Sequence record: PZ386974.1
DNA length: 64,000 bases
Reading direction: 5' to 3' (one strand)
Source: a phage
Positions 9,089 to 39,525 of this stretch are shown piece after piece (position 1 is the first letter of the stretch; each line of letters starts with the position of its first letter). Made by a program: the position numbers and the translations under genes. The notes beneath the pieces are model-generated. The model was given only the letters and a program-made list of their open reading frames with translations, did not search any database and was not told the DNA's origin.

Positions 9089-10189
9089 TTACGCTGTGAA
9101 GATTTTATCCCACATCGCAACAACTGCATCTCGATTATACTTCTTCCATACTGCTTCAGCACGTTTAACTCGAGCTTCGTATGTGTCAGTGAATTCTAAT
9201 ACAGCTTTTGTGTAAAGCGCAACTACTTCTTTCTTAGGAGTAGAGGAATCAATTTCTACACGCACAGTATCTGGGTCATATTCGAATGTCGCGTGCGGAT
9301 AATCCTTAAAAACTAACTGGATTACAGGGACACCTTTAGAGATGGCTTCAATAGAACTATTCTCTACCGTACCTGTGTCAGGACACGTATTAATAAGTGC
9401 TTTAGCTGTTTTAAGACGTTCCATAATTTCACTGTGTGGAGCATCAATAATAACAGGATATTTAGCCGGTGGTGCCCATTTACTAGGACAGTATCCTACA
9501 CCATTTTCGCCTAGTGCTTTAATCGCTTCAAGAGCAACATCAGTACGACGCATTTTAGTGTCATAACGTTGTGCACTAATAATCAGATCAGTCGCCGGAA
9601 GAACTTCAGGTTTCTCATTCAAACAAATAACCGGATAATCTTCGGCTTCAAACAACGGATTTGCTCGCCAATAATCATAATCAATTTTGTCAGTCAGACC
9701 CGAAGTCATATAACAATATTTACGTTCAAATTCACGGAAGGCTTTAGTAGGAGCATAACTCTTACCACCATTCTTATGAATTTGAATAGTCTGGTCCCAA
9801 ATTTGAACAATGCCACGAGATACCGGTTCAAATGGTGTTGCCATAAAATTCTTATGAACTTTAGAGAGACCTGCGTCTTTAATTGCCTGAACGGTTAGTT
9901 TGGTCGGTTCCATTGTAACAACGAAATCATACTCATTAATGCCGGCTAGTTCAACAATCTTACGAGCCATAGTATAACTCATACCTAGACTGAATTTAGT
10001 CAGATGACCAACAGGATGATGATTAACTTTCCAATCACCAAATGTGTCATTATCAAAACCGATATAATCAATATCGGCACCGATGGACACAAGATATTTC
10101 AACACATTTAAATGTACTGCTTCAAGACCACCTTGTACACGTTCTGGGTTAAATGGGACTGCGCGAGATGGGATAAACATAACTTTCAT
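9089..10189 (-). CDS. GT-B fold glycosyltransferase, candidate hmC-DNA pentosyl(arabinosyl)transferase
   Basis: 366 aa; C-terminal segment TGTVENSSIEAISKGVPVI resembles GT4-type donor-binding motif; sits where T4 has gene 60/mobA. Confidence 0.6.
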   Translation of the reverse strand: MKVMFIPSRAVPFNPERVQGGLEAVHLNVLKYLVSIGADIDYIGFDNDTFGDWKVNHHPVGHLTKFSLGMSYTMARKIVELAGINEYDFVVTMEPTKLTVQAIKDAGLSKVHKNFMATPFEPVSRGIVQIWDQTIQIHKNGGKSYAPTKAFREFERKYCYMTSGLTDKIDYDYWRANPLFEAEDYPVICLNEKPEVLPATDLIISAQRYDTKMRRTDVALEAIKALGENGVGYCPSKWAPPAKYPVIIDAPHSEIMERLKTAKALINTCPDTGTVENSSIEAISKGVPVIQLVFKDYPHATFEYDPDTVRVEIDSSTPKKEVVALYTKAVLEFTDTYEARVKRAEAVWKKYNRDAVVAMWDKIFTA

Positions 10190-17826: not shown

Positions 17827-18573
17827 TTAACCTTTAATCAGTTGGAATAATGATGCGCTAAGTGGTAGGCCACGTTTCAATTTTAATTTACCAATGAAAC
17901 CAATCTTTTCAAAACGTTGCAGACCTTGGATAACTTTATCATATGTATCGAAAAGCGATTCAGCGTCAGTTAATTTAGTTTTAGTTTTCCAGTCAGAGCC
18001 TTTAAGAAGAACATTGAGTTTAGTAAGTTCATGGCCTTCTGCTTGATGTGAGCCATTAATGCGTGCTTTCAAAGCAACAATTCTAAGTTTAGATTCGTTA
18101 GATAAAGGTTGATTTTTCATCATGTTCGCCATATGCTTAACACGATTTTCACGTTTTGCTCGGATTTTTAAAATAGTGCCATAAACCTTTTTAATTTGGG
18201 CCCATTTCTTCTCGTCGAGATTAAGTTTCTCTACTTTACGGGCAGAAGGATTAGCGATACGTCTTGCAATGGCATCACGTTTCTCAATAAGTTCTTCTAA
18301 TGTTAAATCAGAACGAGCCGTGTTATATTTTTTCTTAACTGGGATGACATTACCTTTAATGTAGCCTATATCATTATTAAAACGTTCTAAGGATAATTTC
18401 TCACCTTCAACAGAGTTATTAAAAGATTCACCTGAGTAAGCGCAGACCTTTTGATCAAGAATGTTTTTAAGGTAATTAAAGTCTAAGTTAAAATCCTTAG
18501 AGCGTCTCTTCGCAGAAGCTCTGGTGTGGTCAAGACGACGATTGATTTTGTTAATTTTATTATTTGATAACAT
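17827..18573 (-). CDS. srd: Srd (sigma-70-like decoy/regulator)
   Basis: 248 aa; N-terminus MLSNNKI.KINRRLDHTRASA matches recalled T4 Srd; position between dda and mod genes. Confidence 0.65.
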   Translation of the reverse strand: MLSNNKINKINRRLDHTRASAKRRSKDFNLDFNYLKNILDQKVCAYSGESFNNSVEGEKLSLERFNNDIGYIKGNVIPVKKKYNTARSDLTLEELIEKRDAIARRIANPSARKVEKLNLDEKKWAQIKKVYGTILKIRAKRENRVKHMANMMKNQPLSNESKLRIVALKARINGSHQAEGHELTKLNVLLKGSDWKTKTKLTDAESLFDTYDKVIQGLQRFEKIGFIGKLKLKRGLPLSASLFQLIKG

Positions 18574-21835: not shown

Positions 21836-22357
21836 TTAGTAACCATTATCCTGGCGTTCAAAGTTGTGTTGGTTTTTCAAGTAGTAAAGTTTAAAGATTT
21901 CTTCAGCAGTAAGACCAAGACCTTGGAACATATTCAGAACAAAGTGGAGGATATCAATCATTTCAAATTTAATTTCAAGCTGGTCTTCAGGAGACAGTTC
22001 ATCGATACGACGATTTCGATATTCAGCATGTTGTGCCTTCCACGGCTTCCATACACTGCTGGCGGCTTTTTCACCATTGCTCATACCACCAAGTGAAGTC
22101 AGCAGTTCACGAAATTCATCATCAATATAATCTTTCTGATTACGCAGCCAATCAACAACATCACCAGCAGTGGCCAATTCATCAGGATGTTTGTTATGTT
22201 CAGGCTTGTCATTTGCCAGACGAACCTGTAAAGATTTCTGCATATCAAGCATTACCTGCAGTGGGTCTTTATCTTCGTGAATCAGAGCATTAAAATAAGC
22301 TTCTTCTGCTTTATCAACACCAGAAATAAGTTGTGAACATTCGTTAAAGTGTGCCAT
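21836..22357 (-). CDS. 56: dCTP pyrophosphatase (MazG-like)
   Basis: Start set to ATG at 22357 (MAHFNEC...) with AAAGGAA SD; matches recalled T4 gp56. Confidence 0.85.
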   Translation of the reverse strand: MAHFNECSQLISGVDKAEEAYFNALIHEDKDPLQVMLDMQKSLQVRLANDKPEHNKHPDELATAGDVVDWLRNQKDYIDDEFRELLTSLGGMSNGEKAASSVWKPWKAQHAEYRNRRIDELSPEDQLEIKFEMIDILHFVLNMFQGLGLTAEEIFKLYYLKNQHNFERQDNGY

Positions 22358-22445
22358 TATTTTTCCTTTCAATTCAGTATAAGAGAGTTAATTCTAACAT
22401 TAATTTTATAAAGCGTAATAAATAATAGGTAACTAAGGAGATATT

Positions 22446-25396: not shown

Positions 25397-25645
25397 TTAT
25401 TCTTTTTCGCGAATAATAATTACTTGTTGAGGCTGCTGAGCAGATTTCTTTTCGGCAACGATAGACCAAATTAAAGTTCCAATCCAACCAACCATCGTCC
25501 AGTTAAAGAGTAAAGATACAAAGAAGATTGCTGTTGTGCTTTTTGTGCCACGAATAAGTGCGATTATCCAAGGCAACATGTAAATGATGATTGAACCAAT
25601 ACCTGCGATTAAAACTGCTACTGAACTAGCTACGAATAATTCCAT
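25397..25645 (-). CDS. small membrane protein, two predicted TM helices (82 aa; 61.4 position)
   Basis: Hydrophobic segments; own early promoter. Confidence 0.5.
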   Translation of the reverse strand: MELFVASSVAVLIAGIGSIIIYMLPWIIALIRGTKSTTAIFFVSLLFNWTMVGWIGTLIWSIVAEKKSAQQPQQVIIIREKE

Positions 25646-25706: not shown

Positions 25707-26075
25707 TTAGTTAAATTTGTTTAAACGTTCAATACACTGGATGTAGTTATTCGCTATTTGTTTCTGGGTAGGCTCTTTACCGGTTGTTTCAACATAGCGA
25801 ATGAATGCGATTTCAGTAGCCTGTAAGCAATGTTCTTTAACGCGTTGTTCTTTTGACAATGCTACAGTATCAGAGTCACGATACCGTTGAGCATGAGCAT
25901 CAGCTTGAATCATTCGATTACCTACAGTAACCGGGTCTTCCACTTCAACTTTAGGTTGGTCATACTGTTTAACATTCGGATTGTAAATCAATTGGCCAAC
26001 GTTATTAGGGATAAAGCCATGGGCACCACATCCGGTTAATCCGAATACCATTGCTAAAGCGATTAATTTTTTCAT
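25707..26075 (-). CDS. putative lipoprotein (122 aa)
   Basis: Signal peptide with lipobox LTGC (MKKLIALAMVFGLTGC). Confidence 0.5.
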   Translation of the reverse strand: MKKLIALAMVFGLTGCGAHGFIPNNVGQLIYNPNVKQYDQPKVEVEDPVTVGNRMIQADAHAQRYRDSDTVALSKEQRVKEHCLQATEIAFIRYVETTGKEPTQKQIANNYIQCIERLNKFN

Positions 26076-28619: not shown

Positions 28620-28961
28620 TTAAAAGAATTTAAATTTTTTCTTGGTCCGTTCATTAAAAGCTTGTTGTACTTGCATTGTAACACATTTTTCAACATGTGG
28701 TGCAAGTTCTGCTTTTCTGTCCTGATCAAGAACTGCAAAGTCCATTACGATTTTACCATCAACCCAGTCTAGTTTTGTAATATAGACTATATGATGGGAA
28801 CCGTCTTCAAGTGTAATCAGAATCTCTTGAATGACATTTTCCATTGCTGAACGGACAATTTTAAGAGATTCATTAAACACTCGTTCTTTGCGAATGTCTT
28901 CCCCTTCCGAAGAAGGGGATTCATCAACGATTTCTAGATTTAAATCATCGAGATTATTCAT
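28620..28961 (-). CDS. 40: gp40-like protein (113 aa)
   Basis: Position between uvsX and 41 as in T4; track start is TTG, ATG at 28961. Confidence 0.45.
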   Translation of the reverse strand: MNNLDDLNLEIVDESPSSEGEDIRKERVFNESLKIVRSAMENVIQEILITLEDGSHHIVYITKLDWVDGKIVMDFAVLDQDRKAELAPHVEKCVTMQVQQAFNERTKKKFKFF

Positions 28962-30126
28962 CGAAATCTTCCATTTCGTCAAGGTCGTTTTCTATATCTG
29001 CTGCAGATGGAGCATCAGAAGTTTTAACCGGAACTTTAGTTGTTGCTTTGCAATTAATAAGGTCGTTAACAGCGTCATCAACTTCTTTAATAGAAGAGAT
29101 AGCACCTAGTTTATATTTAGTTTCAATTGCATCTCGGAAAGGTTTGTGTTTAAACAAAGGTCCCCAGAATTCTACACAATCAGTAGCTTTAGCACGCCAT
29201 GATTTTTCTTCACGAATCATTTCACCTGTTTCTTCGTCAAGGAATTCACGAGCATACCAACCGGCTTTAGGCTTAACTACAAAACCAATTTCAGTTGCCA
29301 TTTCTAACAAGCCACTGAATGGGTCAATACCGCCATCAAAATTAACCGTGATTGGGAAAGTAGATTTCTCTTTAACTGTACGAGATTTTTCTGCTTTCAA
29401 CGTGAAGTCATAACCGGTCAATTCTGTACCTTCTTTAACCTGACGTTTAGAGATAAAGAATACAGTGTTAGCAGAGTAAAGAATACCTGTACCACCACCC
29501 ATAATCTCTTTAGGATACAATCCGCCGATTTCCATTGCTGTATGGTTGATTGCAACACACGGAATATCTTTAATAGTCAGATAAGGAGTCACAATGCGGA
29601 ACAGAGATTTAAGTGCCTTAGCACGAGACATATCACCTACAACTTTCTCGTTCAACGCATCTTCGGTTTCTTTCTTAGATGCAGTATTACCAATCGAGTC
29701 AATAAAGATAATAACTTTATCACCGCGTTCAATAGCATCAAGCTGATTAGTCATATCAACTTTAAGTTGTTCGACAGATTGAATCGGAGTATGAACTACA
29801 CGGTCTAAATCAACACCCATTGAACGAAAATAAGATTCTGAAGCACCAAATTCCGAATCATAGAACAAACAAATTGCATCTTTATATTTCTTCATATATG
29901 CTGCAACCATGGTCAGTCCAAACAATGTTTTAAAATGTTTAGAAGGAGCAGCAAAAATAGTTAAGCCTGATTGCAACCCGGCATTCAGTGCACCACCTAA
30001 TGCAATATTCAACATCGGAATACGAGTAGGGACTTCATCACGATTATTAAACAGCTTAGACTTAGTCAAGTCTGCAGTCATTTTAGAAGTAGAAGCTTTA
30101 ATCAGACGAGATTTTAAATCAGACAT
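28954..30126 (-). CDS. uvsX: UvsX RecA-like recombinase
   Basis: 390 aa; RecA fold motifs; matches recalled T4 UvsX length and position. Confidence 0.9.
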   Translation of the reverse strand: MSDLKSRLIKASTSKMTADLTKSKLFNNRDEVPTRIPMLNIALGGALNAGLQSGLTIFAAPSKHFKTLFGLTMVAAYMKKYKDAICLFYDSEFGASESYFRSMGVDLDRVVHTPIQSVEQLKVDMTNQLDAIERGDKVIIFIDSIGNTASKKETEDALNEKVVGDMSRAKALKSLFRIVTPYLTIKDIPCVAINHTAMEIGGLYPKEIMGGGTGILYSANTVFFISKRQVKEGTELTGYDFTLKAEKSRTVKEKSTFPITVNFDGGIDPFSGLLEMATEIGFVVKPKAGWYAREFLDEETGEMIREEKSWRAKATDCVEFWGPLFKHKPFRDAIETKYKLGAISSIKEVDDAVNDLINCKATTKVPVKTSDAPSAADIENDLDEMEDFDE

Positions 30127-30224
30127 TGTATTTTTCCATAGGCATCATTATATTTTACTCATGTTTAAAAGATAAGACGATTATATACTAAGGGTTATAC
30201 AGCATTTAAAACTTTAAATGGCTC

Positions 30225-30773
30225 TTAACGAGCCCATTTGATGATTTCTGTAATCAAACCATTACGTTCGCTTGCATTAAATCCTATAACTTTGTTAGCA
30301 CCATCATGATTAAGTAATTGATACGTTTGGATTTTGTTATGAATTGCAAACTCTTCAAAATGTGAAATGACTGTATTAAAACCGAATGAAGACAAAGTAA
30401 TAAGGTCGTCTTCAAAACTTTCAGTCATTTCGTTACGTGTTAAAATAATTGTGAACACATCATGGTTTTGGCAAAGACGAACATAATCCTGTTCATAAAC
30501 ATCAAGAACCGAGTCCGCATCTTGTCGAATACGTCCATAAACCCAGTTACTAATATATCCACGGTCTAACAGATAAATCTTAGTAGGGTCTAAATAATTC
30601 AACATCGTTTCGAAACAGCCAACTTCATTTCGAGACTTAACATCGAAACGTCCATCAACCGTTCGTTTAGGGAAATCAATCTTTACATATCTTTCACTAA
30701 TTTCCATTATGTCATTAATGAAAGTTGTTTTACCAGCATTATCCGGGCCATCTACTAAAATAATTTTAGCCAT
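30225..30773 (-). CDS. P-loop kinase-like protein (182 aa)
   Basis: Walker A GPDNAGKTT near N-terminus; small nucleotide/sugar kinase-like size. Confidence 0.5.
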   Translation of the reverse strand: MAKIILVDGPDNAGKTTFINDIMEISERYVKIDFPKRTVDGRFDVKSRNEVGCFETMLNYLDPTKIYLLDRGYISNWVYGRIRQDADSVLDVYEQDYVRLCQNHDVFTIILTRNEMTESFEDDLITLSSFGFNTVISHFEEFAIHNKIQTYQLLNHDGANKVIGFNASERNGLITEIIKWAR

Positions 30774-30774
30774 T

Positions 30775-31674
30775 TTATTCCTCGATTACGACATCTTCGT
30801 ATTTAGGTATATTATACGGCGAAGAAATTAAAGCATTAAAGTAGATGAACTCACCAAGACCTGGATGGAATACTTCTTCAGGATTTTCGAAATATTGAAT
30901 CTTCGGACGTCCTTTAAGAATTTGATAGTACTCAGTTTTAGTTGGTTTAAAAATTCGAATCAGCGCTTCTTCAGGATACTTATTTCTGTCGAAGCTATTA
31001 TTTGGATCGGTTATATAAAGCGGTTGGCCTAATTGAATTGCACATTCAACCACTTGTTCAAAACGATAGCATGGGTCACTAATTCGAAATGGATGAAAAA
31101 TACCATCTAGATGAATAGGAGCCAAATCACCTACAAGACGCTGCATGATGGAAGGACGTATAACTTTCTGCGTTACGATAATCTTATTACCATCTGCACC
31201 TGCGTTAACCAGCACTTCTTTTTGACGTTCATTCAACACAGTAGTTTGAAGTGAACGATTAACAGACAACATGTCGGTTTTTAAGAATTCATCAATATAA
31301 AAACGTGGTTTATTAGGGTCTGCAGTGATATTGAAATTGAATTCTACGTCAAAAGCGCCATCATATCCAGTGATATCTGTGATTAGAAAATCACAATCAT
31401 AATAAGCAATTAATGAATCAACCACAAATTCATTTTCAGACCAGAAATATTTACGAGTGTTATACGCGTTATCTTTATACCATAATGGAACAAACTTAAA
31501 TTCTGGGAAAAGACGTTCACATTCTTTAATATCAGATGCATTACGTGGATATGTAATCACATCGCCTGGATTAGCACGGTGCAAATGAAGTTGGAAGTTG
31601 CCATCCTTAAGGATAGCATACTGTCCAGTTTCATAAGACCGCATACTCAAAATAGGTACGCGGAAAATAGCCAT
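30775..31674 (-). CDS. hypothetical protein in beta-glucosyltransferase position (299 aa)
   Basis: Occupies T4 beta-gt locus between 42 and uvsX; no recognisable motif; TAATG-coupled to gene 42. Confidence 0.45.
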   Translation of the reverse strand: MAIFRVPILSMRSYETGQYAILKDGNFQLHLHRANPGDVITYPRNASDIKECERLFPEFKFVPLWYKDNAYNTRKYFWSENEFVVDSLIAYYDCDFLITDITGYDGAFDVEFNFNITADPNKPRFYIDEFLKTDMLSVNRSLQTTVLNERQKEVLVNAGADGNKIIVTQKVIRPSIMQRLVGDLAPIHLDGIFHPFRISDPCYRFEQVVECAIQLGQPLYITDPNNSFDRNKYPEEALIRIFKPTKTEYYQILKGRPKIQYFENPEEVFHPGLGEFIYFNALISSPYNIPKYEDVVIEE

Positions 31675-32390
31675 TAGTCAAGAAATCCTTTAACATAATC
31701 AAAATCACGTTCAAACACATGGGCACTTACCATGGTATGAGTATAATCACCAACTTCTACACCACATTCGTTAGCGATATAATGAAGTAATTTTCCTTGG
31801 AGATAAAAATCCAACTGCATAACAACAGCACAGTTCTGAGAACGCATATGACAGTGGGTATAAAGCTTACCATCGCGAATATAATAAGTCACTGAGTCAG
31901 TACATGGATATTCAAGCGTTTCGTCCGAATCAAGCAAAGCCTGATCAGAACTTTCTAGAATTTGGAACACAACTCTTCGAGAGTTAGGCTTCTCTTTAAG
32001 TTCTTTTAGAAGAGCCGGTAATTGGGCCGCAATGCGAGGACCATAGAAAGTGTTGAAGTTCGCAGGCAAAGCATCTGATTTTGGTTTAGAAATAAATTTA
32101 GCGACATTAGGATATGCTTTAAACGCTTCTTCTGCATCAGTACCACCAGAAATCATAAACTTCCAGAAGTCTTCGGCATATTCATAAGAGATGCGGTTAA
32201 TACGTGGGTCGGTCATTTTGAATGATGATGGATTGTCAACAACTACTGTCATGGACCCGATTTCATTACAACGTCCAATACGAGAATTAGTTACGAATTC
32301 GGGGTTTTCTAAAATTTCACGATTGACTGCTTTAAATGCGGTTTGAAAATCTGCGGCTTTGATATATTTCATTGTGTTATGTTTTCCCAT
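31674..32390 (-). CDS. 42: dCMP hydroxymethylase (thymidylate synthase family)
   Basis: 238 aa; active-site region YPCTDSVTYYIRDGKLYTHCHMRSQN parallels TS/gp42 PC(H)...YQRSxD core. Confidence 0.65.
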   Translation of the reverse strand: MGKHNTMKYIKAADFQTAFKAVNREILENPEFVTNSRIGRCNEIGSMTVVVDNPSSFKMTDPRINRISYEYAEDFWKFMISGGTDAEEAFKAYPNVAKFISKPKSDALPANFNTFYGPRIAAQLPALLKELKEKPNSRRVVFQILESSDQALLDSDETLEYPCTDSVTYYIRDGKLYTHCHMRSQNCAVVMQLDFYLQGKLLHYIANECGVEVGDYTHTMVSAHVFERDFDYVKGFLD

Positions 32391-32432
32391 GTTTACCTCA
32401 ATACAATTTATTATATACTCAATTCGTAAAGC

Positions 32433-32672
32433 TTATTTGAATTTCTTGGCAATGTTGATATAACGTAAAGCTTCAGAATCTATACTTCCAAGAACACTAT
32501 GAAGGAATGCATCAGTGTAGTATTCCAATTGAACAGGTTCTTTAATCACTTTAGCCGCTTTGGTTTCAAACAGGCCCATAAGGGCCTTTTTAAGAATTTG
32601 TTCGTTAGTGTTCAGTTTAATAGTCAAAATCTCTTCGTTAAGATTATAATTAAAAGTTTTTCTAGAAATCAT
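32433..32672 (-). CDS. hypothetical protein (79 aa)
   Basis: ATG ATGA-coupled to upstream ORF. Confidence 0.4.
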   Translation of the reverse strand: MISRKTFNYNLNEEILTIKLNTNEQILKKALMGLFETKAAKVIKEPVQLEYYTDAFLHSVLGSIDSEALRYINIAKKFK

Positions 32673-33838
32673 TCCGGGTACCTCAAAGCGTCATCAGAGT
32701 TAGTTATATCAATAATAGATATAGAGTTTTCTGCTAACCCGTTTTTAGATAATTGACGTTTATAATACCTTTCACAATATGTACACGTTGACCCACAGAT
32801 TTCATTAGCACAATCAAAATCTGGATGTCTGAACCACCTTTTTTCTAAAAAGCCATCTAACAAAGAGGTTTCAATATTTACTGTATGTGAAAACTCAGTC
32901 TCATTTTCAAGAGTGAAAATAGTCTCTAAAGGCTTCCACAGTTCTAACAAATTACCTTCAAACTTTTCAGAAGCGTATGCTTCAAGAACTTTCAAAATGT
33001 AGTCTGTGCTACCTGTACGTCCTGAAACTTTGAATTGAGTGATACCAATATCATTATAAAGTTTCAAATCTTGAGGACGAACAAAACGAGTTCTCAACCA
33101 ATTAAATGGGTCTGTATCACGAGCTTTAATACAGTGCTGCATTGGATATCCGTTTAAGGATTTAGCATCATCAGCTGTAACATCAGTACTATGGAAAATA
33201 TAGCAAGAGTCACGATAGCTACAATGTGTTGTATACCCTTTACCAGCATTAGAACAGAACTCGTTTACAAGAACTTCAAATATTATATTGTTCTTATTGC
33301 AAAACTCTGCTGCACGCTTCAGGAAAGAAACTGAACGGTTCTTATGAATTCCGCAACAGACCTTTTTGATGTTATATTGGTCATGCAAGTATTTGATTTG
33401 AGTTACAGCATCGACATGTAGAATTGTTGAAACTTCAATCTCAATATCTTTATTGACTTCACGAACAATTTCCATAACAACAGGGTTAGCGATAGTAATA
33501 CGCCATACGCCTATTGACCAAAGATACTGAACATAATCCTGAATAGCTTTCTTCTTCCACTCAACTAGTTCTCTTTTTGAACCAGGATTTATCGTGTTGA
33601 GTGTATAGTTAAAGCAAATACCTAATTCGTTACAACGTTTAACGTAATCTTCTAACATCTTTTTGTCAACGTCAGGAAGCCTAAAATCAGGTCTGGCTGC
33701 TACAAAAGCCATTTCTCTTGTAGAGCCGTATACTTCGTTTATCAAGCTATTAGGATAAGTTTTATTGAGCTCTACGATTTTATCAAGAAGAGCTAAATCA
33801 AAATTCGTTCCGATTTTAAAAGTATTCATTTTTTGCAT
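32669..33838 (-). CDS. Cys-rich enzyme of unknown function (389 aa), candidate Fe-S protein
   Basis: C-terminal CANEICGSTCTYC (CX4CX3CXYC) plus internal CSNAGKGYTTHCSYRDSC cluster; embedded in sugar module. Confidence 0.5.
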   Translation of the reverse strand: MQKMNTFKIGTNFDLALLDKIVELNKTYPNSLINEVYGSTREMAFVAARPDFRLPDVDKKMLEDYVKRCNELGICFNYTLNTINPGSKRELVEWKKKAIQDYVQYLWSIGVWRITIANPVVMEIVREVNKDIEIEVSTILHVDAVTQIKYLHDQYNIKKVCCGIHKNRSVSFLKRAAEFCNKNNIIFEVLVNEFCSNAGKGYTTHCSYRDSCYIFHSTDVTADDAKSLNGYPMQHCIKARDTDPFNWLRTRFVRPQDLKLYNDIGITQFKVSGRTGSTDYILKVLEAYASEKFEGNLLELWKPLETIFTLENETEFSHTVNIETSLLDGFLEKRWFRHPDFDCANEICGSTCTYCERYYKRQLSKNGLAENSISIIDITNSDDALRYPE

Positions 33839-33884
33839 CTCGCGTTAATTGATGCGATGGTTTTTGCAGGTCTTACTTAAATTA

Positions 33885-34286
33885 TTATAGGTTCGGTTTA
33901 TATGATTTAAATGTTTCGAATTCGCCTTTATTCATAAGAGCTTTGAATTCGTCGGGACGCATAGCTTTGTCGTCGATAATCCAATCATATACTGGTTTAT
34001 GTGTTAGCAAATTATGGTACTTCAAACCAATGTTTTCCAAGTTCTGAATCAGACTTGGGAGAATGTCAATTGCTATACGACCAGGACCTACTGACTTCAT
34101 ACCGCGAGCAGTGTAAAGCGTTATGGTATGCCCTGCATCATACAGGGCATTAATGGCAGACACCATTTCGACGTCTGGTTTGAAGTTCACGTAATCACGA
34201 TTGTTATTCCACTCTGTTATACAATCATCGACATCAAAATAAAGATTAAGCATGTTTTCTACACGGTGCATTAGATTCGTTCCCAT
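33885..34286 (-). CDS. HAD-superfamily phosphatase-like protein (133 aa)
   Basis: Motif I FDVDDCIT near N-terminus and DD motif DWIIDD near C-terminus. Confidence 0.5.
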   Translation of the reverse strand: MGTNLMHRVENMLNLYFDVDDCITEWNNNRDYVNFKPDVEMVSAINALYDAGHTITLYTARGMKSVGPGRIAIDILPSLIQNLENIGLKYHNLLTHKPVYDWIIDDKAMRPDEFKALMNKGEFETFKSYKPNL

Positions 34287-35956
34287 TGATGAGTGATATC
34301 GCCACCGATTGGACGGTAAGAAACACCAGTTTCTTTATCAGTTAGTACCCATTTACCAGGATTTTTTGTAATCAGAGTAGCCGTTACAGGTTCTGCTACG
34401 TCATAACTAATAGAGCCGTCTTGAAGTACACGGCCCATGTTACGTAATTGCTTAGTCAGAAGTTCCATACCTTTATAATATGCGGCTACCGCTTTAAGTG
34501 GATTATTCTTGAAATAACCACCTAATGCAATCCAGATAATTGCTACGGCCAAATGATGATACTCGTTAAACGAACTCAGCTTTCCATATTTGTAAATTAA
34601 TGGATTGATGTTAATAGTCACATTACAAGTTGTTTCGTCAATAGTAAACTGTCCCCAGGTCGGATTAGCGTTGAATTCATCATAACCTGAAACAGCATAA
34701 AGCACTTTAGCTTCATCATACAATTTTGGCCCGTAAATCTTGGTTTCACCAAAATATCCACGAGGGTCGATAAACTTGACTTCGCCGTTATCAGTAATCA
34801 TAGTATTACTGAAGTTCGGGTCACCATGAATAACAGAGTACTGTCCCTGAGAACGGTTATGATAACGAATAAGGTGTTCTAAAGCTTGTTTCAGCATTGG
34901 CTTCAGACGCCCAATCTTAGTGTAGTTCACATGGGTGATTTTACCAAATGAATCAATCAATGGTTGAATGCTTTCACAACGATCAATAACTTTCGTATAG
35001 AATTCTTTAGTGAAATCACGACGAACAGTTTCAGGACTTACAAAATAAGTGTCTGTGCTGAATTTCAGTGCATCTAAAATTGCATCAACAATTTGTGGAC
35101 GAGCAAGACTTGATTTGGATTTAATATATTCAAATGCCGGCTTACCTTTAATGCGTTCCATTTCAAAGTTATTTTCATTAACAGAAACTAACTGAGGAAC
35201 TGAATCTGATTTCACTTTAAGATACCATGAAATCTCATCTTTCTGAAGAGCTCGACCCTGTTCGGTTAATGCGAATTTAGTTACAGTTTCTTCACCAATT
35301 TCAACTGCATTAAAACTACGATTAAGTTCACGAACTTCATGAGCTTTTTCAAGTTTAGGCATATCACCTAAATCAATTAGATTCATAAGCTCTGATTTAT
35401 TGAATGCGCTGCCGTAAAGGAATTCTACGAAATCACGTCCTTTGCAGTATTCATGAATTTCCTCATCGGTAGAACCCATATAGAATTCCCAGTCTTTGAA
35501 CTGATAAATTCCTACAACATTACCACCTGTTGAACCTACGTTAGTGATATTTTCACCGTCGAAATTATATCGACATTCGTCACCCTTAACATAGATTGCG
35601 TTAACATTCCAAGACCATGAACCAAAATCGGGAATAATATCACACCAGTTAACAATTACATTATGGCCGTCTAAATCTTTGTGTAATTTAGCAAGAGCAT
35701 AAGCAGAACCATACGCTTCATCAACTGTGCGAATAGTCACATTGAACCCTTCTTGCTCACAATAAGCTCGAACAGTTTCAGCAAATTTTGAATGAACTAC
35801 TACAATAATTTCATCTGCGCCAAGGTCAGAATAAATTGTATACAAATTGCTCAGAATAGTGTCTTGTTTATAGTTAACAAGCACCTTAGGAATATGATGC
35901 GTTATTGGATATAAACGAGTCGCCAGTCCAGCACCAAGAATAACAGCTTTTTTCAT
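34271..35956 (-). CDS. bifunctional sugar-1-phosphate nucleotidyltransferase / APH-like sugar kinase
   Basis: N-terminus ILGAGLATRLYPIT (G-x-G-T-R-L NTase motif); C-terminal HGDPNFSNTMITDNGEVKFIDPRG (Brenner kinase motif). Confidence 0.7.
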   Translation of the reverse strand: MKKAVILGAGLATRLYPITHHIPKVLVNYKQDTILSNLYTIYSDLGADEIIVVVHSKFAETVRAYCEQEGFNVTIRTVDEAYGSAYALAKLHKDLDGHNVIVNWCDIIPDFGSWSWNVNAIYVKGDECRYNFDGENITNVGSTGGNVVGIYQFKDWEFYMGSTDEEIHEYCKGRDFVEFLYGSAFNKSELMNLIDLGDMPKLEKAHEVRELNRSFNAVEIGEETVTKFALTEQGRALQKDEISWYLKVKSDSVPQLVSVNENNFEMERIKGKPAFEYIKSKSSLARPQIVDAILDALKFSTDTYFVSPETVRRDFTKEFYTKVIDRCESIQPLIDSFGKITHVNYTKIGRLKPMLKQALEHLIRYHNRSQGQYSVIHGDPNFSNTMITDNGEVKFIDPRGYFGETKIYGPKLYDEAKVLYAVSGYDEFNANPTWGQFTIDETTCNVTININPLIYKYGKLSSFNEYHHLAVAIIWIALGGYFKNNPLKAVAAYYKGMELLTKQLRNMGRVLQDGSISYDVAEPVTATLITKNPGKWVLTDKETGVSYRPIGGDITHQWERI

Positions 35957-35997
35957 GTTGAAGTCCTCATTGGTAAGTAGGAGTATTGTACACTATT

Positions 35998-36141
35998 CTA
36001 GTTAAAGCATTCATACTTTGCTTGTAGTCCAATCATAATCCATCCAATTACAAGTGTTGGAATCATTACTGGAGCCGTTAAGCTCCAGTAGATAGTCATG
36101 ACAAGCATCAATAGTAAAAGTCCTATTGTTATTGCTTTCAT
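35998..36141 (-). CDS. small membrane peptide (47 aa), below track threshold
   Basis: ATGA-coupled to SIS gene stop; translation MKAITIGLLLLMLVMTIYWSLTAPVMIPTLVIGWIMIGL... Confidence 0.3.
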   Translation of the reverse strand: MKAITIGLLLLMLVMTIYWSLTAPVMIPTLVIGWIMIGLQAKYECFN

Positions 36142-36773
36142 TGTTCGCCTCGTAACATGGCACCTAGTGCACCGCCTGGATGGAACTTAAGGAAGTCATT
36201 AGAGGTAAATCCACGCTCAGACGAAAGGTTGATAGCGAACGTATCGATAAGCGCTAACAACAATGTAGTGGACATAGTCGGAGCTAAAGAGTTCTCGTCA
36301 ACTTCTACCGCGATACCGGTACAGAACGTATAATCAAAAAGAGCTTCGTATTCTTGTGGAATGTCAGGGTTACAATGTAACAGAATCTGTTTAACCTGAG
36401 GACGAATCATACGAAGATGTTTAGCAACACCTATCATTTCTTCAGTCTTACCAGAACGACTGATGTGAACTAATACATCATTAGGTGCAATAAATCCTGC
36501 GTCACCATGAGAATAATGCCCGGTGTTCAAGTACATACTCGGGATACCGAGTGAAGCAAATGTCTCAGAAGCTTTAGTTGCAATATTAGCATTCTTACCA
36601 ACACCTGTAATAATTACTCGGCTTTCATAATTACTAAGTCCTGGGCGTCGAAGAGTTTCTAGAATAGCATTATAACGAGCAGGGTTTTGACTAATTACTT
36701 TGGCCATAGCGGCCAAAGAAGAAGCTTGTTTTATGATTGCGTCAATAGCGATAGTAATAGGAGTAGTTTTCAT
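36138..36773 (-). CDS. SIS-domain sugar-phosphate isomerase (KdsD/GutQ-like arabinose-5-phosphate isomerase type)
   Basis: 211 aa; GVGKNANIA...HGDAG...SRSGKTEE...LAPTMSTT match SIS/API motifs. Confidence 0.7.
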   Translation of the reverse strand: MKTTPITIAIDAIIKQASSLAAMAKVISQNPARYNAILETLRRPGLSNYESRVIITGVGKNANIATKASETFASLGIPSMYLNTGHYSHGDAGFIAPNDVLVHISRSGKTEEMIGVAKHLRMIRPQVKQILLHCNPDIPQEYEALFDYTFCTGIAVEVDENSLAPTMSTTLLLALIDTFAINLSSERGFTSNDFLKFHPGGALGAMLRGEQ

Positions 36774-36813
36774 ATTTCTCTCATTTAATTAGTTTACCGT
36801 CCATGTCATTATA

Positions 36814-39525
36814 TCAAAAATCGAACATATCGAACAGAGATGCTTTCTTCTCGTAATCGAGTTTCGCTGCTGATGTGAATCCTTCAAGTGGTTTAATAAA
36901 TGTCTTCTCAAGGAGAACAGTGTAGTCCATCCAATGAAGTACGTCGTCTTTAATTAAATCTGTGATTTCAGTACCAGAAGGCCATGCGATACATTTATCA
37001 CCGAATGGGTTTCCTTCACGTAAAGGCAGAACATATACTTTTTCACCTTCTACAACTTGCGGCGCATCGATATTACCTTTGATAGCCCGGTTATACGTCA
37101 GAATTCCACGAATATGGAACGGGCATTTGGGACCAGGGAATCCACCGACGTCATATTTAGCAATGTTATTCGCAGAAGATACCGACGCGATGCTAATATA
37201 ATTCAATTGACGGAATTCTTTTTCAAACTCTTTAAAATATTCTTGTAATGATTCTTCACCTTCTTGAAGCATACGACGAATACATTCCTTAAGAGCTTTC
37301 TGTACTGCTTTAGGGGTCGAAGATTTCTGAGTCTCTAGACCCATGATTTTGAGTTTAGGCTCAGCGTATCTGGTTCCTTCCATATCCCACACGTTTAATG
37401 CATAACGTTTCTTACCAGTCCAAAATCCGCCAATACCTTTAGAACCAAGCGGAGGCCCAGCGATAGCTTCTCGGTCCATGAACATTAAGTGTTGTTTATT
37501 GTTCATGTATTCACACATTTCACGGAAACCTCTATCAATAGCAGGTTCCATACGTTCACGTGCAAACTTATCTAAGAAGTCTACCCAATGGTTGGTATCA
37601 CGGAATTTAGATTCACCAACCTTATCGATAATTTTATCAGCAGATACGTAAATAGAGTCTGTATCACCATAAAGAACGAAAGCTTCACCTTCTGTACCAC
37701 AAACTTCATTCAGATATTCATTAACTTTACGTTCAATCCACTGTAAAGCCATTTGCCCGAATGTTGTGATTGCAGTAGCATTACGCAAATCATAATAACG
37801 GAACCAAACGTTGCCAAGTGCACCATAAAGTGAGTTGATGAGCAATTTACGGTTAATTTGTGCAGTCATACCTGCAACTTCAGTACGTTGAGCTCTAAAC
37901 AACATTTCGTTAAGAGATTTAGCAGACAACTTTTTAATCTTTTCTTTAATCTCATCACTGAAGTCGAAACGATAATCAACATCTAATGGTTCGTCAACAG
38001 AAAGATTAGGATTATGCAATGCCTCTTTAATTATTTCACCATTGCGTTGAGCCGCAAGCATATAACCTTTGTGTTCTTTACGTTGATTAAAGACTTTAGT
38101 GATTTCAGTTGGAACAACACCGTCACGGTCTTTATAATACATCATGCCGTTAGGAGAACAACTGTACACATCAGAAGGACGTTCAGCAACAGCGTTAATA
38201 TAATCATGCAATGGAGCTACTTTAAACGTTCCTGCTATTGTTTCTGGGCTAATATTCACTTGGCGAATAATACTTGGATACAGAGATGTGAGGTCGAAGC
38301 TCATCACATATTTGTATCGATTTGGAATAGGTTCCTTAACAAAAGCGCCAGGATAAGGTTGAACCGGATGAGAACGACCTTGTGGAATCACCTTGTTCTG
38401 CTCTTTAAGGCTATTAAAAATAATAGCATCCCATGTTTTAATTGGGCTAAACACAGATTGAATCTGTATCTTAGCATAATAACCCATGTCCAAGCTCAAG
38501 TTAATGAACTGACGTTTACCATCAATTTGCAATACACGATACACGTCGATAATGTTATAAGAAATATATCGTTGGTGATTGCTTTCACGAAGCTTAGAAA
38601 TAGGGCCGTCATATTTCAGTTTACCAACGTTCAATTCAAATTCTGAAATGTAATCCAGAGAATACGACGGTTGATTGGTAAAAGAGAATTTTTTGTAAAG
38701 GTCAATGTAATCAAGAACAGAGATACCGAACAATGTAATGATTTCACGAGAACCATACATGTTTTCGATAACTTTAACACGAGTTTTACGATGTGGTGAT
38801 AAACGTTTCGCAGTAGATTCGCCAAAAATATTCTTGATTCGGTTATACACATATGGAATATCAAATGACTCAACGTTCCATCCAGTCAAAATGACAGGAG
38901 TTTTCTGTTGCCAGAAGTTGAGATATTCCATCAACAATTCTTTTTCATTATCGAACGGCATATAAATGATTTTATCGATAATTTCGGATGGAACTTCATC
39001 ACCACCTTGTTCTTGAAGCTTAGCCGCAATTTCGATAGACCATTCTTCCACATTACCGTATGGAGAATTCAAAAGGTCAAATACGTAGAACCTGTCGTCA
39101 ATTGAGTCATAATGGGTGATAGCATCAATCGGATGTTTTGCTTGTGACGGCTCAGGGAACCCGTCCGGAGATGTTACTTCGATGTCGAAGTTAGCCACAC
39201 GAATTTTTGTATGGTCGTATTTGATTTCATAGTTATAAGTGTCAGACAAATACGCCAATTTGAAATCGTCCATGCCAAGTGCTTCAAGTCCGATATCTTC
39301 CATGCGTTTAATCCATTGGGAGGCATCACGCATATTAGCGAACAACTTACGAGTACACGGCTTACCGTAGATATCGAAATATTTCGTAGCCTGACTTTCT
39401 GGACAATGAGCAAACAGTGATGGTTTATATTCTACTTCACGAGTACGTTCACGGCCATTAGAATCGATGTAACGTTCAAAAATTGAATCACCAATCTGTT
39501 CAACCGTTAAGTAAAATTCTTTCAT
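36814..39525 (-). CDS. 43: DNA polymerase (family B)
   Basis: 903 aa; sequence appears essentially identical to RB69 gp43 as recalled (MKEFYLTVEQIGDSIFERYIDSNGRER..., YGDTDS). Confidence 0.95.
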   Translation of the reverse strand: MKEFYLTVEQIGDSIFERYIDSNGRERTREVEYKPSLFAHCPESQATKYFDIYGKPCTRKLFANMRDASQWIKRMEDIGLEALGMDDFKLAYLSDTYNYEIKYDHTKIRVANFDIEVTSPDGFPEPSQAKHPIDAITHYDSIDDRFYVFDLLNSPYGNVEEWSIEIAAKLQEQGGDEVPSEIIDKIIYMPFDNEKELLMEYLNFWQQKTPVILTGWNVESFDIPYVYNRIKNIFGESTAKRLSPHRKTRVKVIENMYGSREIITLFGISVLDYIDLYKKFSFTNQPSYSLDYISEFELNVGKLKYDGPISKLRESNHQRYISYNIIDVYRVLQIDGKRQFINLSLDMGYYAKIQIQSVFSPIKTWDAIIFNSLKEQNKVIPQGRSHPVQPYPGAFVKEPIPNRYKYVMSFDLTSLYPSIIRQVNISPETIAGTFKVAPLHDYINAVAERPSDVYSCSPNGMMYYKDRDGVVPTEITKVFNQRKEHKGYMLAAQRNGEIIKEALHNPNLSVDEPLDVDYRFDFSDEIKEKIKKLSAKSLNEMLFRAQRTEVAGMTAQINRKLLINSLYGALGNVWFRYYDLRNATAITTFGQMALQWIERKVNEYLNEVCGTEGEAFVLYGDTDSIYVSADKIIDKVGESKFRDTNHWVDFLDKFARERMEPAIDRGFREMCEYMNNKQHLMFMDREAIAGPPLGSKGIGGFWTGKKRYALNVWDMEGTRYAEPKLKIMGLETQKSSTPKAVQKALKECIRRMLQEGEESLQEYFKEFEKEFRQLNYISIASVSSANNIAKYDVGGFPGPKCPFHIRGILTYNRAIKGNIDAPQVVEGEKVYVLPLREGNPFGDKCIAWPSGTEITDLIKDDVLHWMDYTVLLEKTFIKPLEGFTSAAKLDYEKKASLFDMFDF

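Follow-up and report, generated by a model that had tools for sequence, protein, structure and literature searches.

A gene cluster predicted to place arabinofuranosyl-5-hydroxycytosine in the DNA of a Mosigvirus, and a candidate role for its orphan U32 protein

The phage DNA analysed here, a stretch of 64,000 nucleotides (nt) from sequence record PZ386974.1 (hereafter the window), comes from a Mosigvirus, that is, an RB69-like T-even coliphage. Between the genes for DNA polymerase (gene 43; 36814-39525, minus strand) and UvsX (uvsX; 28954-30126, minus strand) lies a cluster of genes that very probably allows the phage to swap the cytosine of its DNA for arabinofuranosyl-5-hydroxycytosine. The cluster is the already published RB69 gp45-gp55 plus gp3 system, or Afh system of phage HY126, so that this part of the finding is already known. 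What the present analysis contributes is a corrected chemistry, with 5-hydroxycytosine as the base and a bisphosphate on the route to the sugar, where a preliminary description made from the sequence had proposed otherwise, and a testable role for an orphan protein of the Peptidase_U32 family (U32) encoded in the midst of the cluster (32669-33838, minus strand). The balance of evidence tips, by a little, towards this protein being a second C5 hydroxylase making 5-hydroxycytosine, dependent on prephenate and independent of O2, and as such the first DNA-directed member of the U32 family.

A known cluster between gene 43 and uvsX

Read along the minus strand, gene 43 is followed by genes for a 211-amino-acid (aa) SIS-domain protein, a 50-aa open reading frame (ORF) and proteins of 561, 133, 389, 79, 238, 299 and 182 aa, after which comes uvsX. 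Gaps between neighbours range from -26 to +54 nt, with several genes overlapping, the G+C content of the cluster (0.32-0.41) equals that of its flanks, and the composition profile gives no signal of a foreign island. Across bases 30000-37000 the window is 98.6% identical to the DNA of phage PhAPEC2, and at least 80% of the length of the block is kept in 152 phage records, so that we are not dealing with a chance feature. The cluster proteins are 99-100% identical to their counterparts in RB69, HY126 and Bas47, and three proteins have near-identical entries in the PDB (the hydroxylase, 9iqc; the phosphatase, 9iqw; and the second glycosyltransferase, 9iqz). Arabinosyl-5-hydroxy-2'-deoxycytidine is present in the virion DNA of RB69, NP, Bas46/47 and HY126 (PMC13326640, PMC13390438), and because the proteins of the window are 98-100% identical to those of phages where the modified nucleoside is known, the virion DNA of the window phage is expected to carry it instead of dC.

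The ORFs on which the preliminary description relied are all present, on the minus strand and at the coordinates it gave, and its central idea, a module that makes NDP-arabinose for the modified cytosine of RB69-type phages, is borne out both by the literature and by the near-identical proteins. Arabinose on RB69 DNA goes back to Thomas et al. (2018), who put forward ORF055c and ORF53_52c as UDP-arabinose genes (PMC6024577). GenBank records such as that of phage AlbertHofmann already annotate these genes in the same sense. Mahler (2025) and He (2026) are reportedly also among the works on the arabinosyl-5-hydroxycytosine cluster of RB69 and HY126.

The base is 5-hydroxycytosine

To which base is the arabinose attached? 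The preliminary description had taken the gene in the position of T4 gene 42 for a dCMP hydroxymethylase, and 5-hydroxymethylcytosine (hmC) for the acceptor of the sugar. The 238-aa product of this gene (31674-32390, minus strand; RB69 gp48) has a ThyA fold and is about 98% identical to PDB entries 9iqc, 9ir2 and 9iqu (1e-160), as against only 24% to T4 gp42, and no gp42 structure is found among the 60 best PDB matches listed for it. Compared with E. coli ThyA it has Cys146, L143E, D169N and N177D (in the segments EYPC, MRSQN and QLD), whereas T4 gp42 keeps Asp169 (MRSND). The Asp169 and close similarity to gp42 that characterise a T4-type hydroxymethylase are both missing, and the complete signature of a 5-hydroxy-dCMP synthase (Asn169, Cys146, an acidic residue at 143, Asp177) is present. 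Lee et al. (2026) established D169N as the mark of 5-hydroxy-dCMP synthases and report that RB69 gp48, with flavin bound, converts dCMP to 5-hydroxy-dCMP with oxygen from 18O2 (PMC13326640). By its sequence, then, the enzyme in the gene-42 position is a flavin/O2-dependent 5-hydroxy-dCMP synthase and not a hydroxymethylase, an activity that the literature has demonstrated for near-identical proteins.

The same is true of the DNA itself. In RB69 the modified nucleoside is beta-D-Araf-(1->3)-alpha-D-Araf-5-hydroxy-2'-deoxycytidine, in which an ether bond joins the sugar to 5-hydroxycytosine (PMC13326640), and work on another Mosigvirus has confirmed this chemistry and called the hmC assignment erroneous (PMC13390438). 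These data bear directly on the scheme in which gene 42 makes hydroxymethyl-dCMP, arabinose-5-phosphate (Ara5P) is converted to free arabinose and on to arabinose-1-phosphate (Ara-1-P), and NDP-arabinose is transferred to hmC. That the earliest report on RB69 DNA gave arabinosyl-hmC (PMC6024577), that Table 1 of PMC13326640 keeps the wording 'Araf5P to Ara, Ara to Araf1P' and that the enzyme classes fit all speak for it. However, it is at odds with the ether link, which is given by NMR and mass spectrometry (PMC13326640, PMC13390438), with the 18O2 labelling of the gp48 product (PMC13326640) and with the Asn169 of the window enzyme and its distance from T4 gp42; moreover, the part of the PMC13326640 text that deals with the sugar adopts the 1,5-bisphosphate route of HY126 AfhE and AfhF. 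We consider the hmC scheme highly improbable.

Upstream of the hydroxylation step, the window encodes a dCTP pyrophosphatase (dCTPase; 21836-22372, minus strand) that is syntenic with PhAPEC2 gp025, which is annotated as a nucleoside triphosphate pyrophosphohydrolase resembling T4 gp56. From this synteny we infer that the gp56 homolog yields dCMP and clears the precursor pool of dCTP. The dCMP so supplied would be hydroxylated at C5 by the ThyA-fold enzyme with flavin and O2, and phage nucleotide kinases would take 5-hydroxy-dCMP to the triphosphate for incorporation by the polymerase; in RB69, 5-hydroxy-dCMP is phosphorylated by the dNMP kinase gp159 (PMC13326640).

The sugar is made by way of a bisphosphate

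Domain searches (Pfam, NCBIfam, PDB and PHROG) uphold four assignments of the preliminary description: a SIS isomerase, a fusion of nucleotidyltransferase and kinase, a HAD phosphatase and a P-loop kinase. The SIS protein (36138-36773, minus strand; homolog of RB69 gp55) matches Pfam SIS (9.6e-10), the NCBIfam families KpsF/GutQ (8.9e-32) and KdsD (3.9e-30), PHROG 5670 (2.6e-116) and, in the PDB, the Ara5P isomerase structures 3etn (9.6e-25), 2xhz (2e-18) and also 5uqi, and it contains the motifs GVGKN and HGD. It fails the KdsD/GutQ equivalog test, at 105 bits against a cut-off of 505, with residues 48-207 matching and no CBS region. It is likely a D-arabinose-5-phosphate isomerase consisting of the catalytic core only, which does not make it a full member of the KdsD/GutQ family; the reaction is likely the same since the protein resembles the truncated catalytic core in 2xhz, and in the window phage it would convert ribulose-5-phosphate (Ru5P) to Ara5P. 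No KdsD-like SIS isomerase was found by tblastn or phmmer in Thanatos-2, in JS98 or in 4 of 15 Straboviridae-like loci (L022-L037). In these phages the position of the isomerase is filled by unrelated ORFs of about 166 aa, and their modules may draw on host KdsD/GutQ or on another isomerase. The end of the isomerase gene in the window is overlapped by the 50-aa ORF (36011-36163, minus strand), which was taken from the ORF list, resembles RB69 ORF054c and matches no family; its counterparts in AlbertHofmann and LC53 are annotated as hypothetical proteins, the latter with a transmembrane segment.

The 561-aa protein (34271-35956, minus strand; RB69 gp52:53), at least 99% identical in 133 phage records, combines two activities. 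Its N-terminus matches NTP_transferase (8.5e-10, residues 3-99, with GAGLATRL at 8-15), NCBIfam sugar-1-phosphate nucleotidyltransferases and PDB 1jyk (2.1e-5); the C-terminus has weak APH/Fructosamin_kin matches at residues 352-409, with a catalytic loop HGDPNFSN at 377-384 and IDPR at 396-399. To judge by these features it is an AfhE-type enzyme, with an Ara5P 1-kinase at its C-terminus and a UDP-arabinofuranose pyrophosphorylase at its N-terminus. The adjacent gene, which overlaps that of AfhE by 16 nt, encodes the 133-aa protein (33885-34286, minus strand; RB69 gp51). Its lack of any Pfam match is made up for by TIGR01689 (capsule-biosynthesis phosphatase, 3e-13), a DVDDC motif and PDB entries 9iqw (1.9e-85) and 1xpj (1.8e-10), which identify it, as far as similarity goes, as the HAD phosphatase AfhF, taking the 5-phosphate off arabinose-1,5-bisphosphate.

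The route that He et al. (2026) describe for HY126, as summarised in PMC13326640, runs from Ru5P to Ara5P, from there to arabinose-1,5-bisphosphate through the kinase domain of AfhE, to Ara-1-P through AfhF and finally to UDP-arabinofuranose (UDP-Araf) through the nucleotidyltransferase domain of AfhE; free arabinose is not an intermediate in the route as summarised there. The activities of AfhE and AfhF have in this way been demonstrated for proteins near-identical to those of the window, where the same domains would act in the same order. The preliminary description was therefore right about the classes of enzyme and wrong, if that summary is followed, about free arabinose and about the order of kinase and phosphatase.

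Transfer of the sugar

Two GT-B arabinosyltransferases are encoded, one inside the cluster and one near rIIA. The first, arabinosyltransferase 1 (GT1; 299 aa; 30775-31674, minus strand; RB69 gp46:47), occupies the position of beta-gt behind gene 42. It matches neither Pfam nor NCBIfam, and the preliminary description had left it unassigned while correctly naming the P-loop kinase beside it; the protein has a compact GT-B fold, from which we infer that it would add the first arabinose to the 5-hydroxyl. The second arabinose would be added by the 366-aa product (9089-10189, minus strand; homolog of RB69 gp3) of a gene outside the cluster, between rIIA.1 and a topoisomerase gene and syntenic with PhAPEC2 gp003. 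This protein is near-identical to the 'phage HY126 glycosyltransferase' of PDB entries 9iqz and 9ir0 (7.4e-249), and its probable role as arabinosyltransferase 2 is taken from PMC13326640.

The P-loop kinase (182 aa; 30225-30773, minus strand; RB69 gp45) is thymidylate-kinase-like (TMK-like), with a match to PHROG 761 (thymidylate kinase, 5.7e-45), a weak NCBIfam dTMP kinase match and no PDB match by sequence. Homologs occur in JS98, DLP1 and Thanatos-2, and the kinase accompanies GT1 in every version of the Straboviridae module that we examined. A TMK-like protein also goes with GT1 in several divergent modules (L013, L014, L039, L047, L050 and L069), and in divergent phages such proteins are found beside GT1 or U32. 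The phage already owns a gp1-type dNMP kinase that acts on 5-hydroxy-dCMP. A dedicated TMK-like kinase on top of it suggests that the first arabinose may be added at the level of the mononucleotide, with the TMK-like enzyme phosphorylating the product. Lee et al. obtained no glycosyltransferase activity on 5hoC-DNA (PMC13326640).

Might the module serve something other than DNA? A KdsD-like isomerase, a match to a capsule-biosynthesis phosphatase and the filing of both under host takeover in PHROGs would suit a cassette of auxiliary metabolism concerned with sugars of the host surface (Kdo, capsule, lipopolysaccharide). Such a cassette would not be expected between gene 43 and uvsX in the company of a base hydroxylase and a DNA-type glycosyltransferase, and the DNA of RB69, NP and DLP3 does carry arabinose, with phage glycosyltransferases having used UDP-Araf on DNA (PMC13326640, PMC13390438). 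Phages knocked out for AfhE or AfhF are moreover reported, in outline, to lose the arabinose on their DNA. We find this possibility scarcely credible. Three points do count against our reading of the cluster as a DNA arabinosylation system: the roles of its genes in the window are read across from the chemistry of homologs, the AfhE and AfhF data come second-hand through the summary in PMC13326640, and the first glycosyltransferase has never been reconstituted, even in the literature, and may act either on the mononucleotide or on DNA (PMC13326640).

The U32 protein

The one enzyme of the preliminary description that had no place in its sugar route is the Cys-rich protein of 389 aa at 32669-33838 (minus strand; RB69 gp50). 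It does contain 13 cysteines, and it belongs to the Peptidase_U32 family (Pfam 7.4e-11; 42.2 bits against a cut-off of 22.4). A MAFFT alignment with the four E. coli paralogs TrhP, RlhA, UbiU and UbiV proved too poor in the iron-sulfur (Fe-S) region; hhalign was used instead and relates the phage profile to these paralogs with a probability of 96.8% (E 3e-10), at 14-24% identity. NCBIfam gives a weak UbiU match only. In 121 homologs, the most distant of them 48% identical, ten cysteines (161, 180, 195, 206, 212, 236, 343, 348, 352 and 355) are replaced rarely or never; of these ten, C206 and C212 align by hhalign with the first two Fe-S cysteines of TrhP. The AlphaFold2 (AF2) model has a pLDDT of 93, and Foldseek finds its best PDB match in 5d88, the U32 protein Mk0906, and otherwise generic TIM barrels. 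A sequence search of the PDB, which holds structures of the HY126 hydroxylase, phosphatase and glycosyltransferase and none of the U32 protein, found nothing, so that between this empty search and the Foldseek result no solved U32 hydroxylase is at hand as a template.

At the C-terminus, residues 343-355 form an invariant CX4CX3CX2C motif (CANEICGSTCTYC). The last three cysteines of CANEICGSTCTYC have the radical-SAM-like spacing CX3CX2C, with an aromatic residue before the final Cys. This motif may bind a second metal cluster.

Among the module proteins of the window, the U32 protein is also the one closest to its counterpart in Shewanella phage Thanatos-2, at 79% identity, against 72% for the ThyA-type hydroxylase, 54% for AfhE and 47.5% for the glycosyltransferase, with UvsX at 68%, gp41 at 67.5% and gp43 at 65%. 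We find it in 222 phage records, always at 80% identity or more, with hosts among the Enterobacterales or Shewanella. AfhE is more widespread (374 records, 57 of them from Acinetobacter phages, a group missing from the U32 matches). Acinetobacter is an obligate aerobe. A strict rule tying U32 to host aerobiosis was nevertheless rejected as an absolute, given E. coli Dhakaviruses without U32. The presence of U32 was also rejected as a sign of how many arabinoses are attached, or of whether a KdsD-like isomerase is encoded: Thanatos is mono-arabinosylated and has U32, with SIS not detected; DLP1 has SIS and no U32; and JS98 has neither.

Genomic links between U32 and prephenate

What could a U32 protein contribute to DNA modification? 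Characterised relatives suggest hydroxylation. RlhA needs Fe-S biogenesis and prephenate to make 5-hydroxycytidine in 23S rRNA (PMC5727448), TrhP depends on prephenate and has an O2-dependent partner in TrhO (PMC6599085), and for the UbiU/V-dependent hydroxylations of anaerobic ubiquinone biosynthesis 18O labelling has identified prephenate as the oxygen donor (PMC10990095).

Phage genomes link U32 to prephenate supply. An AroQ chorismate mutase gene adjoins U32 downstream in Thanatos-2 (CM_2, 8.2e-8) and upstream in a metagenomic T4-like contig, L015 (1.2e-13), and a chorismate mutase lies next to U32, on its downstream side, in 13 of the 15 Straboviridae-like loci from IMG/VR. By tblastn, 51 GenBank phage records contain a small chorismate mutase gene, again beside U32 on the downstream side and already annotated as such by some depositors; the hosts include Klebsiella, Serratia, Yersinia, Enterobacter, Edwardsiella, Erwinia, Pectobacterium, Providencia and Morganella. 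The phage enzymes keep the equivalents of Arg11', Arg28, Lys39, Glu52, Ser84 and Gln88 invariant, and their profile matches solved chorismate mutases in the PDB at 1e-17. Phages PEi20, phiR1-RT, LC53 and kv_tblp2 share the core order U32 - chorismate mutase - ThyA-type hydroxylase - glycosyltransferase, which means that the mutase fills the slot held in the window by the 79-aa ORF. In three of these phages (PEi20, L016; phiR1-RT, L017; LC53, L018) the HAD phosphatase and U32 genes are separated by a homing endonuclease gene of the seg type that is absent from the window.

The 79-aa ORF (32433-32672, minus strand; RB69 ORF049c; from the ORF list) overlaps the stop codon of U32 by 4 nt and has no Pfam match at E<=1 and no NCBIfam match. 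The idea that it is a diverged chorismate mutase was rejected, given that Pfam yields nothing and that hhalign assigns a probability of 0.65% against the phage mutase profile. Its homologs are confined to Mosigvirus and include truncated versions of 47-58 aa in several genomes, which suggests a decaying or dispensable gene. A tblastn search of the window in all frames revealed no credible vestige of a chorismate mutase: weak matches of three mutase queries (E 0.06-0.35) at 17860-17994 fall on the helical C-terminus of an Srd-like ORF (17827-18573) and were judged to be chance coiled-coil likeness. The window phage would thus draw its prephenate from host PheA and TyrA.

U32 in divergent phages of anaerobes

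More distant relatives of the U32 protein, 40-58% identical, were gathered from the protein database, IMG/VR and GTDB genomes, and their neighbourhoods were scanned with Pfam and with profiles built from the proteins of the window. All 15 Straboviridae-like loci contain the D169N hydroxylase ('MRSQN'), GT1, AfhE, the HAD phosphatase and the TMK-like kinase. Divergent loci, of which there are about 50, present a different picture: within +/-10 kb of U32 none has a D169N ThyA-type hydroxylase, and one has a canonical ThyA ('QRSGD'). A GT1 homolog is present in about 21 of them and abuts or overlaps U32 in 8 (L013, L014, L039, L043, L044, L048, L051 and L065); about 20 have an AfhE homolog, and a SIS isomerase and proteins like thymidylate kinase are present in many. 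The genes typically run GT1-SIS-AfhE-TMK-(DAHPS-CM)-HAD-U32 or TMK-GT1-U32, where CM stands for chorismate mutase and DAHPS for DAHP synthase; in L071 the order is GT1-SIS-AfhE-U32. In the window, hydroxylase, GT1 and TMK-like kinase form a contiguous trio (30225-32390) with the ThyA-type enzyme as hydroxylase; in the divergent phages, U32 stands in the place of the hydroxylase.

The link to the shikimate pathway recurs in these loci. Chorismate mutase is found near U32 in 7 of the roughly 50, Pfam identifying a DAHP-synthase/chorismate-mutase fusion beside U32 in L047, L050, L052 and L061, and L069 having a free-standing 94-aa mutase about 2 kb downstream. In L011, a DAHP synthase without mutase domain directly follows U32. 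The GTDB bins from which U32 relatives were recovered are assigned to Phocaeicola faecalis (an isolate), Romboutsia, Tannerella, Oscillospiraceae, Gastranaerophilaceae, Angelakisella, Erysipelotrichales and colon Clostridia. An enzyme that needs O2 to hydroxylate its substrate could not work in such hosts, all of them strict anaerobes.

Some of the divergent loci have features of their own. On very large contigs (L008-L010: 466 kb, 60 kb and 14 kb) and in L014, U32 comes directly after a dCMP deaminase gene, and thymidylate kinase, UDG-like and radical SAM genes and a PolIII-alpha/PHP polymerase are found nearby; these phages may carry a different hydroxylated pyrimidine. L013 and L044 have a TET-associated-glycosyltransferase-like protein after U32, followed in L013 by dUTPase/DCD and UDP-galactopyranose mutase. 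This recalls the galactofuranosyl-5-hydroxycytosine of Rhizobium phage RL38J1, yet there is no ThyA-type hydroxylase nearby.

A prephenate-dependent hydroxylase for DNA precursors?

Taken together, the family membership of the U32 protein, its gene neighbours and its distribution among phages lead us to the cautious view, held with slightly more confidence than doubt, that it makes 5-hydroxycytosine. The substrate would be a cytosine deoxynucleotide, dCMP being likeliest because of the conserved kinase partner; prephenate would donate the hydroxyl, and one or more Fe-S clusters would remove electrons. In RB69-like phages, the U32 protein would be the anaerobic twin of the flavin/O2 enzyme, employed when DNA is built in the anoxic gut. 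Many phages linked to strict anaerobes would depend on it as their sole hydroxylase for a GT1-type glycosylation of DNA, and in some of them a phage-encoded chorismate mutase or DAHP synthase would provide the oxygen donor. In the literature that we consulted nothing links U32, chorismate mutase or prephenate with phage DNA modification; He (2026) and Mahler (2025) lie outside that literature and may address the matter.

There are two other scenarios that might explain the presence of a U32 gene here. First, the protein might act on a sugar or another small molecule, or be a true peptidase, without hydroxylating any base. Table 1 of PMC13326640 labels it a 'sugar or heterocycle reductase', the family owes its name to peptidases, with collagenase activities reported for PrtC and HP0169 (PMC5727448), and Dhakavirus and Acinetobacter phages modify their DNA without U32. 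If this were its function, however, the adjacent chorismate mutase and DAHP synthase genes would go unexplained, as would the trios of TMK-like kinase, GT1 and U32 in loci that have no sugar-activation genes (L013, L014, L039 and L044), and those divergent modules would be left with no other hydroxylase nearby. We regard this scenario as unlikely, while taking it seriously. Second, the protein might be an RNA hydroxylase like TrhP or RlhA, acting on host or phage tRNA or rRNA, with chorismate mutase boosting prephenate for cmo5U or ho5C. Among nucleic acids, the substrates so far characterised for U32 proteins are indeed only U34 of tRNA and C2501 of 23S rRNA (PMC5727448, PMC6599085). Yet the phage gene is embedded in, and translationally coupled to, a DNA-modification operon, it travels with GT1, AfhE and TMK-like genes in unrelated phages, and its product is without the DUF3656 of RlhA and no closer to TrhP or RlhA than to UbiU. 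An RNA substrate therefore seems to us very unlikely.

A DNA-precursor hydroxylase remains our preferred reading, and several observations caution against it. No U32 protein has had hydroxylase activity demonstrated in vitro (PMC10990095), and Lee et al. list RB69 gp50 in a table only, as the reductase mentioned above, with no discussion (PMC13326640); the bioRxiv version of their paper does not mention gp50. Only two of the four canonical Fe-S cysteines can be aligned, and the C-terminal CX4CX3CX2C has no known counterpart, with none in the E. coli U32 proteins. Mosigviruses, including that of the window, and Klebsiella phage Marfa have no recognisable chorismate mutase, and about 40 Escherichia phages (Dhakavirus) possess the module without U32. 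Finally, the absence of a ThyA-type enzyme from the divergent loci covers +/-10 kb only, and the assignment of phage contigs to bins of metagenome-assembled genomes is unreliable.

Why might it matter? As published work, which our analysis confirms, the cluster explains why RB69-type DNA resists restriction enzymes and CRISPR and does not recombine with that of T4. The known hydroxylase needs O2, and these phages replicate in the anoxic gut, so how can a genome with a hydroxyl group on every cytosine be made in the absence of oxygen? A U32 hydroxylase working with prephenate would provide the answer. If the proposal is true, a poorly understood enzyme family would be found to act on DNA precursors too, and phages would become a manageable system in which to reconstitute its chemistry; the proposal would also point to a large, unexplored and apparently undescribed set of anaerobe phages with glycosylated DNA, and it would give the first example of a phage that enlists the shikimate pathway as an auxiliary to DNA modification. 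Phage therapy would be concerned as well, because modification state, and with it sensitivity to host defences, could depend on oxygen and on the aromatic amino acid metabolism of the host.

The displaced imm genes

The preliminary description had the module replace imm, which T4 carries between genes 43 and 42. This turned out not to be so: imm (82 aa, a membrane protein; 25397-25645) and imm.1 (122 aa, lipoprotein-like; 25707-26075) are both present on the minus strand, between sp and dmd and about 5 kb from the cluster. The imm genes have moved and are not lost. Dhakavirus JS98, for its part, possesses the module with imm in its place beside gene 43.

Comparison with known systems

The closest relative of the cluster is the Afh cluster of RB69 and HY126, which matches it gene for gene, in an unchanged order, with proteins 99-100% identical. 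There is no substantive difference, the genes for the 561-aa and 299-aa proteins being intact in the window and split in the original RB69 record because of sequencing errors.

Acinetobacter phage DLP3/Lazarusvirus and Dhakavirus share the ThyA-type hydroxylase, GT1, the TMK-like kinase, AfhE and AfhF with the window (38-79% identity) and differ from it in having no U32 gene. DLP1-type phages have extra glycosyltransferases, and the DNA of DLP3 is tri-arabinosylated; JS98 differs in the place of imm, next to gene 43, and in the lack of a KdsD-like isomerase by tblastn.

Since the order in T4 is 43 - imm.1 - imm - 42 - beta-gt - segA - uvsX, a comparison with the hmC glucosylation of T4 (gp42, alpha-gt, beta-gt, gp56 and gp1) is apt. 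Both systems use the slot 43...42 - beta-gt...uvsX, and both rely on a ThyA-fold enzyme to make a modified dCMP, on a dCTPase and on a GT-B transferase using a UDP-sugar. In T4, a hydroxymethyl group is added by way of folate by an enzyme with Asp169, whereas the window enzyme, with Asn169, would hydroxylate by way of flavin and O2. The sugar is arabinofuranose, for which the window encodes a donor pathway of four activities because the host provides no NDP-arabinofuranose, and a U32 protein is present as well.

At the level of single enzymes, the window isomerase has in common with KdsD and GutQ the catalytic core with its GxGK and HGD motifs; at 211 aa it lacks their tandem CBS domains and scores far below the NCBIfam equivalog cut-offs. 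The phage U32 protein resembles E. coli RlhA, TrhP, UbiU and UbiV in its U32 domain, its possession of conserved cysteines (two of them aligned with those of TrhP), its TIM-barrel fold and its genomic link to prephenate supply. By analogy, the step proposed for it would be that of RlhA, C5 hydroxylation of cytosine, and its pairing with an O2-dependent enzyme for the same product would mirror TrhO/TrhP and UbiIHF/UbiUV. It differs from TrhP in the spacing of the first two cysteines (CX5C as against CX6C) and from the E. coli proteins in its extra C-terminal CX4CX3CX2C and in having neither DUF3656 nor a UbiT-like partner. Above all, it would act on a deoxynucleotide or on DNA, a kind of substrate without precedent in the U32 family.

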